From a virus (lineage: Duplodnaviria; Caudoviricetes): a DNA stretch of 64,000 nucleotides. Under the pieces are notes generated by a model that was not told the DNA's origin, made no database searches, and saw nothing but the letters and a program-made list of their open reading frames with translations. The stretch is taken from IMG/VR virus record IMGVR_UViG_3300028833_003296, positions 1 through 64,000 of that record; one strand, written 5' to 3'. Below are positions 25,697-29,620 of the stretch, in pieces; within the stretch, counting starts at the first letter, position 1, and each line of letters opens with the position of its first letter. Position numbers and translations under genes: made by a program.

Positions 25697-25862
25697 CTCC
25701 GATTAACATAAAATATAATTATGACAGTTCATCTATGAGACTATTAATCTACAAAACTAACCTTTAACCTAATAACAAAAGTACATTTTACACAAATCAT
25801 TAAAACTTAAACAATATGAAAAAATTAAAATTGGTACTCAATCATTTCCTTGTCTGTAAAAA

Positions 25863-25890
25863 CCCTGTCGCGCCTCACGGCGAGGCAGGG
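25863..25890 (-). terminator. GUGA-tetraloop terminator
   Basis: CCCTGTCGCGCC-tcac-GGCGAGGCAGGG stem, U-tract on the minus strand. Confidence 0.65.
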
Positions 25891-26113
25891 AAAAATTAAC
25901 AAAATTCATCTCAAAAAAAACTATTAACCAAATAACTGTTTTTGAAAAATCCTTTTGACTTATGAAAAAAAAATTACTGAAAAAAATTACTGCGAGTGTA
26001 ATCATCATCCGGGCATCGCCATGCCACGGTTTTTTCACAACTAACTAAAAACTTTATTACCATGAAAAATAATACTCTGCAAATGTACACATATTCCATC
26101 GTCCGAAAAAATA

Positions 26114-27094: not shown

Positions 27095-27355
27095 ATGGAG
27101 AATCGAATAAAAATCGTGATAAAGGAAAAAGGCTTTACGATTACGAGCCTTGCAGAAAAATTGGGAATGACACGCGAAAACCTTTCAAGAACAATAGTCA
27201 ACCCATCTTCGCCAACATTGGAAAAACTTTCCGAGGCACTTGACGTTCCCGTGTGGCAATTCTTCGCCTCTCGTGAGGATGTTTTGGGCGATTCCGATTC
27301 TACATCCATCACTTGTCCCCATTGCGGCAAGGAGATCCAGATAGAGGTAAAATAA
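27095..27355 (+). CDS. XRE-family HTH regulator with C-terminal CPHC zinc ribbon
   Basis: GFTITSLAEKLGMTRENLSR...PTLEKLSEALDVPVWQFF and ITCPHCGKEI. Confidence 0.85.
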   Translation: MENRIKIVIKEKGFTITSLAEKLGMTRENLSRTIVNPSSPTLEKLSEALDVPVWQFFASREDVLGDSDSTSITCPHCGKEIQIEVK

Positions 27356-27390
27356 AAAAGCCCCAACCTTGCTGGGCTGGGGTTTGGTGT

Positions 27391-27463
27391 TAAAGTGATC
27401 TTTTTAAACGTATTGCGGAACTGGTCTGTCTATCAGGTGACCAGCGTCAATATCCTCTTTATA
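27391..27463 (-). repeat. Cassette 3' flank R2, copy a (coding remnant plus terminator)
   Basis: 63/73 nt identical to 28562-28634; the minus strand reads ...IEKYKEDIDAGHLIDRPVPQYV*; hairpin at 27357-27384. Confidence 0.8.
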
Positions 27464-27616
27464 TTTTTCAATAAATGGCTGAATCGTCTAAACAAGAAGA
27501 TAGATTTAGGCAAAATAAAGCCAAAACTAAAACAAACAAAAATTTTTTCATGTTCAATTGTTATTTGATTTTTTGATTTTAAGAGGTCAAAATCTCATTT
27601 TATTCAAGTGGGATAA

Positions 27617-28306
27617 TTATTTCTTCTTTCTGACATTGAAAGGTCCAAGGCTCGTTATACCGTCAACGTGTTCAAACAACTGTGGCTCAACGTTTGCCTG
27701 CATAGGGTCAAGTATGAAGTCTATACCCTCTCGCCTTGCCAGCTTGGCAGCTGGGACGAAATCGGAATCCCCAGAGAAAAGTACAATGGTATCAACAAAC
27801 CCTTTAAGAGCTAAAGTGGCGATATCCACGCCTATTTTCATATCAATGCCTTTTTGCTGTACGTCCAAGTATACTTCATTTTCCGACAAATCTTCCAGTT
27901 TCTTCTTTCCAGACAGCAATTCTTTCACGCGACCAGGATAAATCTGCCAGTTATGATTGTCTTTCAATGTGCCTATGCGTAAGGCTACCTTGCGCTTTCG
28001 CTTCAACTCCTCCAGCAACTCCATACGGAACTTGTACTCAGCAGTTTTACTGAAGTCGAACAGTTTCTTACTTACAGGATTGTGTACCTTCTTGTCTATT
28101 GGTGGACAGTCATAATAGAAAATACGGTAGAGCGTGTTACTTTTACCTACATGTTTCATCGCCATTGTATAAAGATGGTTGGCCACTTGGGCACCTGTCA
28201 TCTTCTTATCTTTATTATAAAGGGAATTGAAACGCTTTACGAAGAATCCGCCGTCTATTAATACAGCAATCTTCACGGGTGGAAAACTGTTTTCTTTCTT
28301 TTTCAT
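27617..28306 (-). CDS. NYN-domain (LabA/DUF88, PIN-fold) ribonuclease
   Basis: IAVLIDGGFF, RIFYYD, QQKGIDMKIGVD, LFSGDSDFVPA..LARREG catalytic acidic motifs; start MKKKENSF at 28306. Confidence 0.9.
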   Translation of the reverse strand: MKKKENSFPPVKIAVLIDGGFFVKRFNSLYNKDKKMTGAQVANHLYTMAMKHVGKSNTLYRIFYYDCPPIDKKVHNPVSKKLFDFSKTAEYKFRMELLEELKRKRKVALRIGTLKDNHNWQIYPGRVKELLSGKKKLEDLSENEVYLDVQQKGIDMKIGVDIATLALKGFVDTIVLFSGDSDFVPAAKLARREGIDFILDPMQANVEPQLFEHVDGITSLGPFNVRKKK

Positions 28307-28317
28307 TATGCAAAAAA

Positions 28318-28402
28318 TAATGCCCAGGGGTCGGCACATCCATTATCAAGAATAAGCGGCAAAGCAGATTGCGGCTTTCGGATGTGCGTCGCCATGAGCC
28401 TA
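28318..28402 (-). ncRNA. Candidate structured RNA in the 5' leader of the NYN gene
   Basis: Minus-strand RNA GCUCAUGGCGACGCACAUCC...GGAUGUGCCGACCCCUGGGC forms a long interrupted stem (perfect 8 bp GCACAUCC/GGAUGUGC) enclosing AAAGC/GCUUU and UUAU/AUAA hairpins; -7 box TATATTTG at 28412-28419, TTTG at 28440-28443. Confidence 0.5.
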
Positions 28403-28465
28403 ATCATGTTGCAAATATAAACATTTTATATATTTCCTCCAAATTTAGAGGGTGAAAATTATCGT

Positions 28466-28508
28466 TTTCAGTCTAAATTTAATATTTAAATACAAATATC
28501 TGATGTTT
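28466..28508 (-). repeat. Cassette 5' flank R1, copy a
   Basis: 43-bp exact match to 29469-29511 (TTTCAGTCTAAATTTAATATTTAAATACAAATATCTGATGTTT). Confidence 0.9.
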
Positions 28509-28561
28509 TCACGGATGTTTTCTCGTCATAAAAAGCCAGAACATTTCTGCCCTGGCTTACC

Positions 28562-28634
28562 TAAAGTGATCTTTTTAAATGTATTGTGTAACTGGCTTAT
28601 CTATCAGGACACCAGCATCAATATCCTTTTTATA
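28562..28634 (-). repeat. Cassette 3' flank R2, copy b
   Basis: Reads ...IDRYKKDIDAGVLIDKPVTQYI* on the minus strand, followed by hairpin AAGCCAG/CTGGCTT at 28533-28558. Confidence 0.8.
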
Positions 28635-28673
28635 CCTATCAATGAATGTGCTAATCTTATTGATAGTTGTTTA

Positions 28674-29147
28674 TTATCTTCTTAGCTTTTGAGGATAATT
28701 TTCTTCACCATCATTATTTTCTTCCTTGTCTTTTAATCCATCCGAACCAAAGAACATGCCTACAATGGCAAAGAAAGACGAGAAACAAGAAATAGCGGCA
28801 AACCACGGATGGTCGAAGTAAAGTGCAAATGCGGTGAGAAAGATAAAAAGAGCAAGGGAAAGGAAGGCATACAACATCCCACGCCTATTGACCTCCCTGT
28901 CGTCTTTTTGCTGTTGCTCGATTATATCAAGCCGCCTCTCCATATCTTTATGGCGGTTCTCTTGTTCCTTTTTGGTAACGTCGATAAACATATCAACGAT
29001 GCGAGGGTCTATCCTTTGGTAATGTTCAAGTTCTTGGGGAGATGGCAGGGCACTGTCATCCACAGTAAGAGTTTGCTCAGTCTGCTTGCCCGTACCTTGA
29101 ACGGTGGAAACCAATGTCTCCCTTCGATTAATAGACTTCTTAGCCAT
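28674..29147 (-). CDS. DUF2335-like membrane protein
   Basis: LPSPQELEHY..I.P...D....EQ..RH motif followed by two TM helices. Confidence 0.75.
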   Translation of the reverse strand: MAKKSINRRETLVSTVQGTGKQTEQTLTVDDSALPSPQELEHYQRIDPRIVDMFIDVTKKEQENRHKDMERRLDIIEQQQKDDREVNRRGMLYAFLSLALFIFLTAFALYFDHPWFAAISCFSSFFAIVGMFFGSDGLKDKEENNDGEENYPQKLRR

Positions 29148-29379
29148 TTTCCGTTATCACCTTGTTAAATGCTTTTCTTGCGTCGTTTTTAATGAGAGTT
29201 TGGTCATTTCGTAAGTTTTCACCATCACTTTTTGGTGAAAACACCTGTTTTCGCATTTCCTTTATGTCTTCAGATCCGTTCTCATATCTACCATTAGCAG
29301 ACTTTCCTATCATAAAAAGGCCACGAGCTATGGTAAAAAACGATTCAGAGAAAAAACTCGCAATGTTAAACACAATCAA
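29140..29379 (-). CDS. Small hypothetical protein coupled to the DUF2335 gene
   Basis: ...SDGENLRNDQTLIKND.RKAF C-terminus, 8-nt overlap; own -7 box TATATTTG at 29404-29411. Confidence 0.65.
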   Translation of the reverse strand: MIVFNIASFFSESFFTIARGLFMIGKSANGRYENGSEDIKEMRKQVFSPKSDGENLRNDQTLIKNDARKAFNKVITENG

Positions 29380-29468
29380 TCACCTCCTTTCATTTTCGGA
29401 TTACAAATATAGAAATAAAATACGTATCTTCCAAATATTCTGACCATTAAAATTGTTTTTCGTTTAAA

Positions 29469-29511
29469 TTTCAGTCTAAATTTAATATTTAAATACAAAT
29501 ATCTGATGTTT
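29469..29511 (-). repeat. Cassette 5' flank R1, copy b
   Basis: Exact copy of 28466-28508. Confidence 0.9.
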
Positions 29512-29620
29512 ACCCGTCATTTTCGTGCGGTCATGAAAAGGAGAAAGGGCGCGGTGCATCGGCTTGCATCACGCCCAAACTTTACGGTGTGTCATCATTT
29601 TCGTGGGGTCACGAAAATGG

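Follow-up and report, generated by a model that had tools for sequence, protein, structure and literature searches.

A covarying, promoter-bounded leader RNA linked to NYN nuclease genes in phages, plasmids and chromosomes of several bacterial phyla

The NYN nuclease gene of the Caudoviricetes phage analysed here is preceded by a structured RNA of ~95 nt with its own promoter, and the same RNA stands directly upstream of NYN in ~160 loci. (By the window we mean the whole stretch of DNA that was analysed, 64,000 nt in length.) We hold it to be very nearly certain that this RNA is a real functional partner of NYN, and the best explanation overall, which we favour with slightly more than even confidence, would be an RNA-nuclease module in which the RNA holds NYN in check. 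A first, sequence-only reading of the window had proposed for NYN a structured RNA of its own, bounded by a promoter, and no protein partner, a view that is strongly supported by the near-exclusive linkage across phyla. The parts of the cassette are given here in the order of transcription.

28466-28497, minus strand: 5′ flank of the cassette, with an exact repeat at 29469-29500, ahead of a neighbouring DUF2335 cassette
28443-28440, minus strand: −33 promoter element TTTG, read from the sequence
28419-28412, minus strand: −7 promoter element TATATTTG (TAnnTTTG), read from the sequence
28407-28311, minus strand: RNA of ~95 nt between the promoter and the NYN gene
28407-28400, minus strand: predicted 5′ tail (AUGAUUAG) with a conserved AUUA at 28404-28401, from the tail consensus
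28399-28392, minus strand: 5′ strand of helix P1 (GCUCAUGG), pairing with 28329-28322
28391-28388, minus strand: 5′ strand of the internal loop, CGAC (consensus CNAC), from homologue comparison
28387-28380, minus strand: 5′ strand of helix P2 (GCACAUCC), pairing with 28341-28334
28377-28354, minus strand: P3, a variable, optional hairpin (AAGCCGCAA, loop UCUGCU, UUGCCGCUU), from the minimum-free-energy fold and homologues
28353-28342, minus strand: conserved unpaired segment AUUCUUGAUAAU, with loop consensus R-A-U-A-R-Y directly 5′ of the P2 3′ strand
28341-28334, minus strand: 3′ strand of P2 (GGAUGUGC), from covariation
28333-28330, minus strand: 3′ strand of the internal loop, CGAC; most Bacteroidota have CNAC here, other phyla CGAGC
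28329-28322, minus strand: 3′ strand of P1 (CCCUGGGC), from covariation
28321-28311, minus strand: U-run (AUUAUUUUUUG) directly 3′ of P1, from a terminator scan
28306-27617, minus strand: NYN (LabA-like) nuclease gene, 229 aa, from Pfam NYN, phrog_5783 and homologue N-termini
27391-27477, minus strand: 3′ flank of the cassette, an 87-nt repeat with an 84% identical copy at 28562-28648
27361-27382, minus strand: strong terminator closing the cassette, from a terminator scan (stem of 8 bp, 6 of them G-C, and a U-run after it)

Both elements of the promoter that had been read ahead of the leader could be located, with a spacing of 20 nt, and the promoter is, to judge by its motifs, of the Bacteroidetes type; the putative transcription start is placed by promoter spacing. 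The promoter block is common to the window cassette and its neighbour. At the other end, the predicted RNA ends at 28311 and leaves a gap of 4 nt to the ATG at 28306, which, together with the covariation of P1 and P2, upholds the description of a ~95-nt structured leader ending just before the NYN start codon. A longer open reading frame from 28339 was rejected as the start of NYN, since the N-termini of homologues align at 28306. In the window phage the module lies between terminase and portal, and the statement that no protein antitoxin is encoded still applies: besides a 27-codon, signal-peptide-like ORF remnant, the cassette holds no second protein gene. Because one frame, read by eye, stays open to a TAA in both copies of the 87-nt repeat, these look like a gene 3′-end scar.

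The protein belongs to the NYN family (Pfam PF01936; 38.8 bits against a cut-off of 24.2, E 1.6e-9, residues 149-198) and matches phrog_5783 (E 1.5e-84). With the Pfam score above cut-off and five aspartates (D18, D155, D161, D180 and D182) invariant among 13 homologues of 55-100% identity, the earlier assignment as an NYN nuclease with acidic motifs is borne out. The best Foldseek matches of its AF2 model (pLDDT 81) are 2qip (E 2.7e-5, probability 1.00) and the MARF1 NYN domain (5yaa, 6fdl), and a sequence search against solved structures returned no solved relative, only chance matches. Compared with LabA-like NYN proteins (PF01936; PDB 2qip, VPA0982; MARF1 NYN, 5yaa/6fdl), the fold and the acidic active-site residues are alike, whereas the window protein has an insertion of ~70-80 residues (residues ~67-150) and a basic C-terminal tail. 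PADLOC gave no ToxN-type match on the window and a weak match to the HEC-09 profile (E 1e-4, 20 bits), covering only residues 110-192. HEC-09 is an NYN candidate (Hma-embedded) that carries an N-terminal helix-turn-helix-like domain and protects E. coli from none of the phages tested (bioRxiv 10.1101/2024.01.29.577857).

The window leader alone folds no better than its shuffles (z −1.36), 16 of 200 of which do equally well. When 17 leaders are aligned with MAFFT, paired cells make up 91.9% and 9 pairs show double changes, which 0 of 500 shuffles reach; across 60 leaders, 95.4% of cells are paired in two 8-bp helices, with 153 double-change cells versus 45 in shuffles, and slid registers give at most 56% paired. 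The covariation check proposed for the leaders of NYN homologues thus came out in favour of both helices, with the 17- as well as the 60-leader alignment. Double-sided changes occur at six of the eight pairs of P1 and at six of the eight pairs of P2 in the 60-sequence alignment, where 98% of the P2 cells are paired; the eight positions of P1 in the window include one G·U pair and one U·C mismatch. Since G·U pairs are frequent in the leader helices and the plus-sense model reaches 84.5 bits where the opposite strand gives 21.1, the structure is that of an RNA on the sense strand. As far as sequence comparison goes, the fold of this RNA is a stacked P1-loop-P2 hairpin with an optional P3, which replaces the three-way junction drawn initially. 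The CG/CG pairs of that drawing fall on the conserved CNAC/CNAC internal loop, its inner AAAGC-GCUUU hairpin yields to a pairing of AAGCCGCAA with UUGCCGCUU that homologues back instead, and its UUAU/AUAA hairpin is not conserved, GAUAAU being a conserved unpaired segment. P3 pairs 28377-28369 with 28362-28354, has, at the foot of its stem, an A-U pair that changes to U-A in homologues (GAAAGC...GCUUA versus GAUAGC...GCUAA) and is missing in many of them, for example in the short variants L043, L045 and L077.

Outside the helices, the tail has the consensus R-A-U-W-R-Y (A in 88 and U in 83 of 89 sequences), and GAUAAU at 28347-28342 mirrors this tail motif. The RNA is pseudo-two-fold symmetric, a unit of RAUWRY, 8-nt strand, CNAC and 8-nt strand occurring twice; Tandem Repeats Finder detects no tandem repeats in the leader, whose two halves are alike in layout only. 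The symmetry argument is one of sequence resemblance and is confounded by shared ancestry. Outside Bacteroidota, the 5′ strand of the internal loop reads CAGUAC and is sarcin-ricin-like. The idea of the loop as a decoy substrate that mimics the 23S sarcin-ricin loop was dropped as not general, the window clade having CNAC/CNAC and not AGUA/GA. For a pseudoknot between tail and loop (AUUA with UAAU), both segments hardly vary and their mutual information is confounded by clade. We also rejected a leader peptide: an ATG in the tail opens a frame of ~34 codons across the leader, yet this ATG is absent in most homologues, and substitutions keep pairing, not coding.

Of 67 loci, 66 have 7 or more U among the 9 nt that follow P1, the median distance from P1 to the ATG is 18 nt, and in Chitinophagaceae the AUG abuts the U-run. 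Together, P1 and the U-run look like the end of a short RNA, in the manner of an intrinsic terminator. P1 of the window clade closes a loop of >50 nt and carries a mismatch, which bears on terminator strength. Upstream, a TAnnTTTG box aligns in 30 viral homologues, equally far from the RNA in each, other phyla have sigma-70 −35/−10 boxes at the position of the window promoter, and the promoter adjoins the RNA in every phylum examined.

By model R1, NYN is directly preceded by the RNA in ~75 of 80 species genomes, and model R2 finds the RNA at NYN loci of other phyla with 35-55 bits and on a Thermus plasmid copy with 27.5 bits (E 1.8e-5). Both models perform poorly with the enterobacterial and Campylobacter versions, and those leaders were read by eye, as was the RNA upstream of NYN in Paraburkholderia, a Verrucomicrobium and an Arenicellales genome and on Xanthomonas and Campylobacter plasmids. 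The pair is present in Bacteroidota, Pseudomonadota, Campylobacterota, Deinococcota, Verrucomicrobiota and Bacillota. There is one RNA copy per genome, at the NYN locus, and one locus (L087) has a second, orphan copy. Intact RNA without intact NYN is found where the gene is deleted (G164) or decayed (L173 and L175); the converse, an NYN gene lacking the RNA, came up in a single case, Aquaspirillum. A Campylobacter plasmid has no U-run after P1 and a separate hairpin follows there, and the leader of an E. coli phage is without the conserved loop motifs.

A search for conserved neighbour genes around the RNA-NYN pair found none. The pair occurs at prophage ends; in the E. coli lambdoid phage 2B8 it occupies the rexAB slot between cI and N, in a Streptococcus phage it lies between a repressor-like regulator and the integrase, and in Burkholderia phage phiE202 between a toxin-antitoxin pair and the integrase. 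The NYN module is carried by 168 plasmids, 129 of them conjugative and 136 of them Campylobacter plasmid records, and on the Thermus plasmid it sits between a helicase gene and a methylase gene. Many chromosomal copies are found among ordinary metabolic genes. Judged by its setting, the window cassette is prophage accessory cargo, a self-contained unit of RNA and nuclease.

An Rfam scan at E ≤ 1 found no family at the window leader (abiF motif family included) and none at ten distant loci, and no riboswitch family matched in these scans. RF03535 (TEG147; threshold 56.1 bits) has no match at E ≤ 1 in the window record, and the leader of the NYN homologue of Streptococcus phage Javan84 scores 52.6 bits against it (E 1.8e-8), below the threshold; RF03535 and R2 match the same place in that leader. 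RF03535 resembles the Javan84 leader in layout (tail, P1, AGUA-type internal loop, P2, U-run), and it is a narrow family, which the window RNA does not match. On these scores, the firmicute version of the leader RNA nearly matches Teg147 of Rfam RF03535. Teg147 (sRNA85) is listed as a bona fide sRNA of 60 nt in S. aureus HG003 (PMC5826253), is expressed from a genomic island of S. aureus (PMC3053349), and JAR3D predicts a sarcin-ricin loop in RF03535 (PMC13085918). The papers examined that mention Teg147 neither connect it with NYN nor hint at a cross-phylum spread.

To account for these observations, we propose that one promoter drives the ~95-nt RNA and that, because P1 with its U-run is terminator-like, most transcripts would stop there and yield a small RNA, with only read-through reaching NYN, for which a second promoter is not expected because its start codon is too close. 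The RNA would bind the NYN protein, probably as a dimer, and restrain it, in cis through limited read-through and in trans as an RNA inhibitor in excess; in a lysogen, the module may then act in exclusion, abortive infection or addiction. By analogy, restraint through direct binding seems to us a little likelier than the contrary. An antitoxin or abortive-infection role is plausible from the analogy with toxin-antitoxin (TA) systems of type III and AbiF/RCd22, and a true toxin-antitoxin or abortive-infection system would be a rather doubtful, though by no means far-fetched, extension of it. The absence of protection by HEC-09, the lack of tandem repeats and the chromosomal copies among metabolic genes were counted against the proposal, and so were the wide loop and the mismatch of P1, the Campylobacter plasmid with no U-run after P1, the E. 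coli phage leader without the loop motifs and the symmetry argument being confounded by ancestry.

Of the known RNA-nuclease systems, the AbiF_Cd/RCd22 pair of a C. difficile R20291 prophage is, by analogy, a closer functional precedent than ToxIN. [quoted passage not shown] Type III TA systems (ToxIN, CptIN, TenpIN) share with the NYN pair the order of promoter, RNA region, terminator and endoribonuclease gene, and also the occurrence on plasmids and prophages; in these systems the terminator sets the RNA-to-toxin ratio (PMC3401426). At the sequence level the window has the same layout, with the promoter at 28443-28412 and P1 plus U-run at 28329-28311 before the nuclease gene. Tandem repeats are a defining feature of type III TA, whose antitoxin is a tandem repeat array, whereas the NYN leader is one pseudo-symmetric hairpin with its own base as terminator. 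The parallel with type III TA drawn by the sequence-only reading therefore holds for the layout and breaks down at the missing repeats and at the nuclease, an NYN protein outside the ToxN, CptN and TenpN families. That reading knew of no characterised system of this exact type, and searches of the literature on NYN with RNA motifs, riboswitches, type III TA and anti-phage defence likewise yielded no description of an RNA-NYN pair; yet the firmicute version of the RNA is in Rfam, as TEG147.

RNase III, RNase E and Regnase-1 regulate their own mRNAs by binding or cutting them, and the leader might likewise be a purely cis-acting, autoregulatory 5′ UTR, bound or cut by NYN or a host factor, with no role in trans and with NYN as a housekeeping-like or phage RNA-processing enzyme rather than a toxin. 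Such a leader would be expected always within the NYN transcription unit and immediately 5′ of the start codon, as it is, with the AUG even abutting the U-run in Chitinophagaceae, and both the many chromosomal copies outside obvious mobile or defence contexts and the failure of HEC-09 to give defence agree with it. However, a mere cleavage or binding site needs no U-run kept in 66 of 67 loci, intact orphan RNAs outlast the loss of NYN, Teg147 is reported as a discrete 60-nt sRNA (PMC5826253), and the spread by prophages and conjugative plasmids fits conflict systems better than housekeeping; we thus consider a purely cis-acting leader unlikely, if still a serious candidate. Alternatively, the unpaired tail, the internal loop and GAUAAU could form the pocket of a riboswitch or sensor, its ligand being a small molecule or a factor from phage or host that, once bound, would open or lock P1 and so control read-through. 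The architecture is indeed that of a terminator-embedded aptamer, with the most conserved nucleotides in loops and covariation limited to the helices. Against it, wherever the motif occurs, in all phyla and on phages and plasmids alike, it is tied to one and the same gene family, which argues for a protein-specific partner rather than a metabolite, no conserved alternative anti-terminator pairing exists, and the short variants keep only ~25 unpaired nucleotides, all of which makes a sensor improbable.

Strict co-inheritance and a sarcin-ricin-like internal loop, a common protein-docking platform (PMC13085918 for RF03535), would also suit the role of a positive cofactor, the RNA joining NYN in a ribonucleoprotein and being needed for its activity, stability or target choice. 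We give this even less credence than a sensor, because the leader offers no single-stranded stretch that varies as a guide would (what varies is a hairpin, or is missing), orphan RNAs persist without NYN, and one NYN gene does without the RNA. Another reading takes the hairpin for a chance structure, or for no more than the terminator that ends the preceding gene. Its U-run and the non-significant single-sequence fold (z −1.36) might speak for this, but it retains hardly any probability and comparison refutes it: in all phyla examined the preceding gene and the hairpin are separated by a promoter, the loops keep their sequence from phylum to phylum, the helices covary, and the element follows NYN into unrelated contexts.

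Returning to an RNA that holds its nuclease in check, it is tempting to speculate, quite tentatively, on a new phylum-spanning class in which a pseudo-two-fold RNA, its basal helix serving as terminator and its loop of sarcin-ricin type in most phyla, docks on an NYN dimer and silences it, prophages and plasmids using the pair for exclusion or addiction and Teg147 being the first antitoxin RNA of the class to be detected. Should the RNA hold NYN in check, this would add a family of toxins or defence modules that is widespread and RNA-controlled, with a new nuclease fold (NYN) for such systems and a new RNA architecture that has a built-in terminator and no repeats, and the orphan S. aureus sRNA Teg147 would gain a function. 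Being small (60-95 nt), strongly covarying and linked to one protein partner, the RNA would make a tractable model of RNA-protein recognition. Restraint of the nuclease would also explain why the gene occupies sites that temperate phages classically use for exclusion, the rexAB position of E. coli lambdoid phages among them, and why it sits on plasmids, above all those of Campylobacter. The module of phage 2B8 lies in the same lysogen-expressed exclusion slot as lambda RexAB, to which its protein is unrelated.

Folded on its own, the window's leader has a minimum free energy of -29.3 kcal/mol (z -1.36 against shuffles), which is unconvincing. We regard the comparative evidence, as read from sequence alignments, as decisive for a structured leader. 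NYN homologues with 56-100% identity are encoded on 80 viral contigs, nearly all of which carry the same element at the same position. When 17 distinct leaders are aligned with MAFFT without regard to structure, two 8-bp helices (P1, outer, and P2, inner) come out 91.9% paired, with double-sided changes in nine pairs, and none of 500 shuffles of this alignment equalled the observed pairing and covariation. The covariance model R1, built in this analysis, gives a single strong match in the window (28311-28409, minus strand, 84.5 bits; opposite strand, 21.1 bits), and in about 75 of 80 species genomes encoding relatives it matches immediately ahead of the NYN gene. Across 60 leaders from species genomes, 95.4% of cells are paired and 153 cells show double changes, against 45 in shuffles, while registers slid by one to three columns reach at most 56% pairing. 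Since G.U pairs are frequent, the structure is that of an RNA on the sense strand. This comparative evidence excludes a chance hairpin or a foreign terminator. The structured leader noted in the sequence-only reading is thus real and conserved among NYN homologues, with much stronger comparative support than was visible to that reading. Its parts in the window are as follows.

28443-28440, minus strand: -33 promoter element TTTG, Bacteroidetes-type, read from sequence
28419-28412, minus strand: -7 promoter element TATATTTG, 20 nt from the -33 element
28407-28400, minus strand: 5' tail, with AUUA at 28404-28401
28399-28392 with 28329-28322, minus strand: P1, with one G.U pair and one U.C mismatch
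28391-28388 opposite 28333-28330, minus strand: internal loop, CGAC opposite CGAC
28387-28380 with 28341-28334, minus strand: P2
28377-28369 with 28362-28354, minus strand: P3, a variable inner hairpin
28353-28342, minus strand: unpaired segment AUUCUUGAUAAU
28320-28311, minus strand: U-run
28306, minus strand: ATG, likely start of the NYN ORF (stop 27617), read from sequence and homologue N-termini

About 95 nt of non-coding sequence thus lie between the promoter and the NYN ORF. A longer ORF from 28339 was rejected as the NYN start, as it begins inside an RNA helix and finds no support in homologue N-termini. The U.C mismatch in P1 is common in the window's clade; P3 is missing in many homologues, and at its base A-U and U-A are swapped among Bacteroidales leaders. 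Instead of the three-way junction proposed earlier, the fold is a stacked hairpin: the suggested AAAGC/GCUUU and UUAU/AUAA inner hairpins are not the conserved pairings among homologues, nor are the "CG/CG" pairs, whose positions form an internal loop with the consensus CNAC on both strands. Tail and loop segment have a common consensus, R-A-U-W-R-Y, in both cases immediately 5' of a helix strand, so that the unit [RAUWRY][8 nt][CNAC][8 nt] occurs twice. We infer that this pseudo-two-fold symmetry would suit a homodimeric binding protein.

At least seven U are found among the nine nucleotides after P1 in 66 of 67 loci. A median of 18 nt (7-37 nt in most loci) separates P1 from the start codon, too little to accommodate a second promoter. 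In all groups examined, a promoter directly adjoins the RNA: aligned Bacteroidota loci have TAnnTTTG boxes at a fixed distance from it, and Proteobacteria, Verrucomicrobia, Deinococcota and a spirochaete have sigma-70 -35/-10 boxes, which are found 5-10 nt upstream of P1. Given this defined 5' end and terminator-like 3' end, NYN would be expressed only by read-through. On a Campylobacter coli plasmid (L183), some 150 nt ahead of the NYN start codon, GGCAGUAA, GAUAGC and both helices are kept, and P1 is followed not by a U-run but by a separate hairpin with a U-rich tail, so there the terminator is uncoupled from the motif.

The pair is widespread. Leaders of Verrucomicrobia, Gammaproteobacteria, Legionellales, Deinococcales, Geobacteraceae and a spirochaete reach 35-55 bits with a second covariance model, R2, for which 60 leaders of Bacteroidota were used, and a Thermus plasmid copy reaches 27.5 bits (E 1.8e-5) with it; divergent copies were read by eye in Paraburkholderia, a Verrucomicrobium, an Arenicellales genome, and on Xanthomonas and Campylobacter plasmids. 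Its occurrence is sporadic and always single copy: of 151 genomes sampled from Bacteroidales, 5 have it, as do 2 of 151 from another class of Bacteroidota. The leader in Escherichia phage 2B8, an E. coli lambdoid phage (L180:2916-2987), is a long interrupted hairpin with the U-run at the same position; it keeps the layout and lacks the AGUA, CNAC and AUAG motifs, reflecting either strong divergence or a different RNA with the same task. In a Verrucomicrobia genome, a fluoride riboswitch (RF01734, 46.7 bits; L127:2240-2314) precedes the module by about 620 nt and is probably unrelated to it.

No conserved neighbour gene of the pair was found among the examined loci. Bacteroidales copies sit at prophage ends beside the endolysin, in some cases with a Fic gene after them. 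In phage 2B8 the pair occupies the slot that rexAB has in lambda, between cI and N. It is flanked by the genes for an XRE-family regulator and the integrase in Streptococcus phage Javan84, by a toxin-antitoxin pair and the integrase in Burkholderia phage phiE202, and by genes for a helicase and an N6-methylase on the Thermus plasmid. The pair is carried by 168 plasmids, mostly from Campylobacter, of which 129 are conjugative. Such prophage and plasmid sites are the usual homes of exclusion, addiction and defence genes. Ordinary metabolic genes surround some chromosomal copies.

Several loci carry the RNA without a working NYN gene. In one genome (L179:3448-3533) the motif is intact (56.7 bits) and the NYN gene deleted; about 130 nt of low-complexity sequence follow, then the end of a gene read by eye as aspartokinase-like, and a HigB/HigA-like pair, likewise read by eye, lies just upstream. 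In two further loci (L173 and L175) the NYN gene has decayed beside an intact RNA. A Prevotella prophage (L087:4785-4868) has a second, degenerate orphan copy (28 bits) about 1.1 kb downstream of its NYN gene, preceded by genes read by eye as holin and lysozyme and followed by no NYN gene. Only in Aquaspirillum was an NYN gene found to lack the RNA; another apparent case was rejected because a divergent RNA copy is present. The numbers are small, and the asymmetry would be as expected for an antidote and a poison.

An antitoxin-type interpretation is plausible. P1 and the U-run would stop most transcripts, so that a short RNA would be made in excess; this RNA would bind NYN, probably as a dimer, and restrain it, in cis by limiting its expression and in trans by inhibiting the protein. 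We lean slightly towards restraint by direct binding, and consider a true toxin-antitoxin or abortive-infection system possible, at somewhat less than even chances. A plain autoregulatory 5' UTR seems unlikely to us. A switch sensing a ligand or factor is improbable, and an RNA cofactor that activates NYN slightly more so.

Functionally, the nearest precedent is AbiF/RCd22, from a C. difficile prophage. Its structured leader RNA, which has two conserved motifs, reduces toxin expression and, by binding the AbiF nuclease directly, neutralises it in cis and in trans (bioRxiv 10.1101/2025.04.15.648962). Type III loci require a tandem repeat array (Blower et al., PMC3401426); a search of the leader found no tandem repeats and the NYN fold differs from that of type III nucleases, so the pair is not a member of ToxIN, CptIN or TenpIN. 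Rfam 15 has no match to the window's RNA at E<=1, nor to ten distant leaders. The Javan84 leader scores 52.6 bits (cut-off 56.1; E 1.8e-8) against RF03535 (TEG147), with an R2 match at the same place. Teg147 (sRNA85) is listed among the bona fide sRNAs of S. aureus HG003, with a length of 60 nt and a GC content suggestive of horizontal origin (PMC5826253), and its expression is reported to come from a genomic island (PMC3053349); the literature we found reports no function for it. The internal loop outside Bacteroidota, CAGUAC/CGAGC, agrees with the sarcin-ricin loop predicted by JAR3D in RF03535 (PMC13085918). Our literature search found no link between NYN genes and a conserved RNA. The NYN candidate HEC-09, which occurs within Hma systems and protected against no phage tested (bioRxiv 10.1101/2024.01.29.577857), is weakly similar to the window's protein (E 1e-4). 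Apart from a narrow Rfam family without reported function, the RNA is essentially absent from catalogues, and the pair is a new variation on RNA-controlled nuclease modules.

The 229-aa protein matches Pfam NYN (PF01936, 38.8 bits; cut-off 24.2) and no NCBIfam model, and belongs to phrog_5783 (E 1.5e-84), a phage family annotated as of unknown function. Five aspartates (D18, D155, D161, D180 and D182) are invariant in the homologue alignment. The structures nearest to its AlphaFold2 model (pLDDT 81) are 2qip, a LabA-like protein, and the NYN domain of MARF1, from which it differs by an insertion at about residues 67-150 and a basic C-terminal tail.

In the 79.7-kb IMG/VR virus record that contains the window, the cassette is flanked by what we took, by eye, to be a terminase-like ORF and a large putative portal ORF. 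An 86-aa gene (27095-27355, plus strand) with an XRE-type helix-turn-helix (Pfam HTH_3, E 3.8e-7) and a C-terminal CxxC zinc-ribbon-like end converges on it, and is not conserved as an NYN neighbour elsewhere. The ORF-poor stretch 25861-25974 (minus strand) weakly matches the Bacteroides sRNA BTnc231 (RF04180; 25.6 bits, E 0.042, far under cut-off). Two cassettes with common ends are stacked head to tail on the minus strand (27361-28560 and 28525-29563), the former with the NYN gene and its leader, the latter with a 79-aa ORF and a gene for a DUF2335 membrane protein. They share 32 identical upstream nucleotides (28466-28497 and 29469-29500) with a homologous promoter. Downstream, both have an 87-nt block (84% identity between 27391-27477 and 28562-28648) and, after it, a terminator; from sequence, the arrangement looks like a cassette-exchange site. 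Read by eye, one frame is kept in both 87-nt copies and ends in TAA (...YKEDIDAGHLIDRPVPQYV and ...YKKDIDAGVLIDKPVTQYI), and most differences between them are synonymous or conservative; the repeats look like scars of a small gene's 3' end. A 27-codon ORF (27468-27551, minus strand), translated by eye, encodes a lipoprotein-type signal peptide and lipobox (MKKFLFVLVLALFCLNLSSC...); its stop coincides with the start of the repeat's frame, one base out of frame, and it may be a frameshifted small lipoprotein gene.
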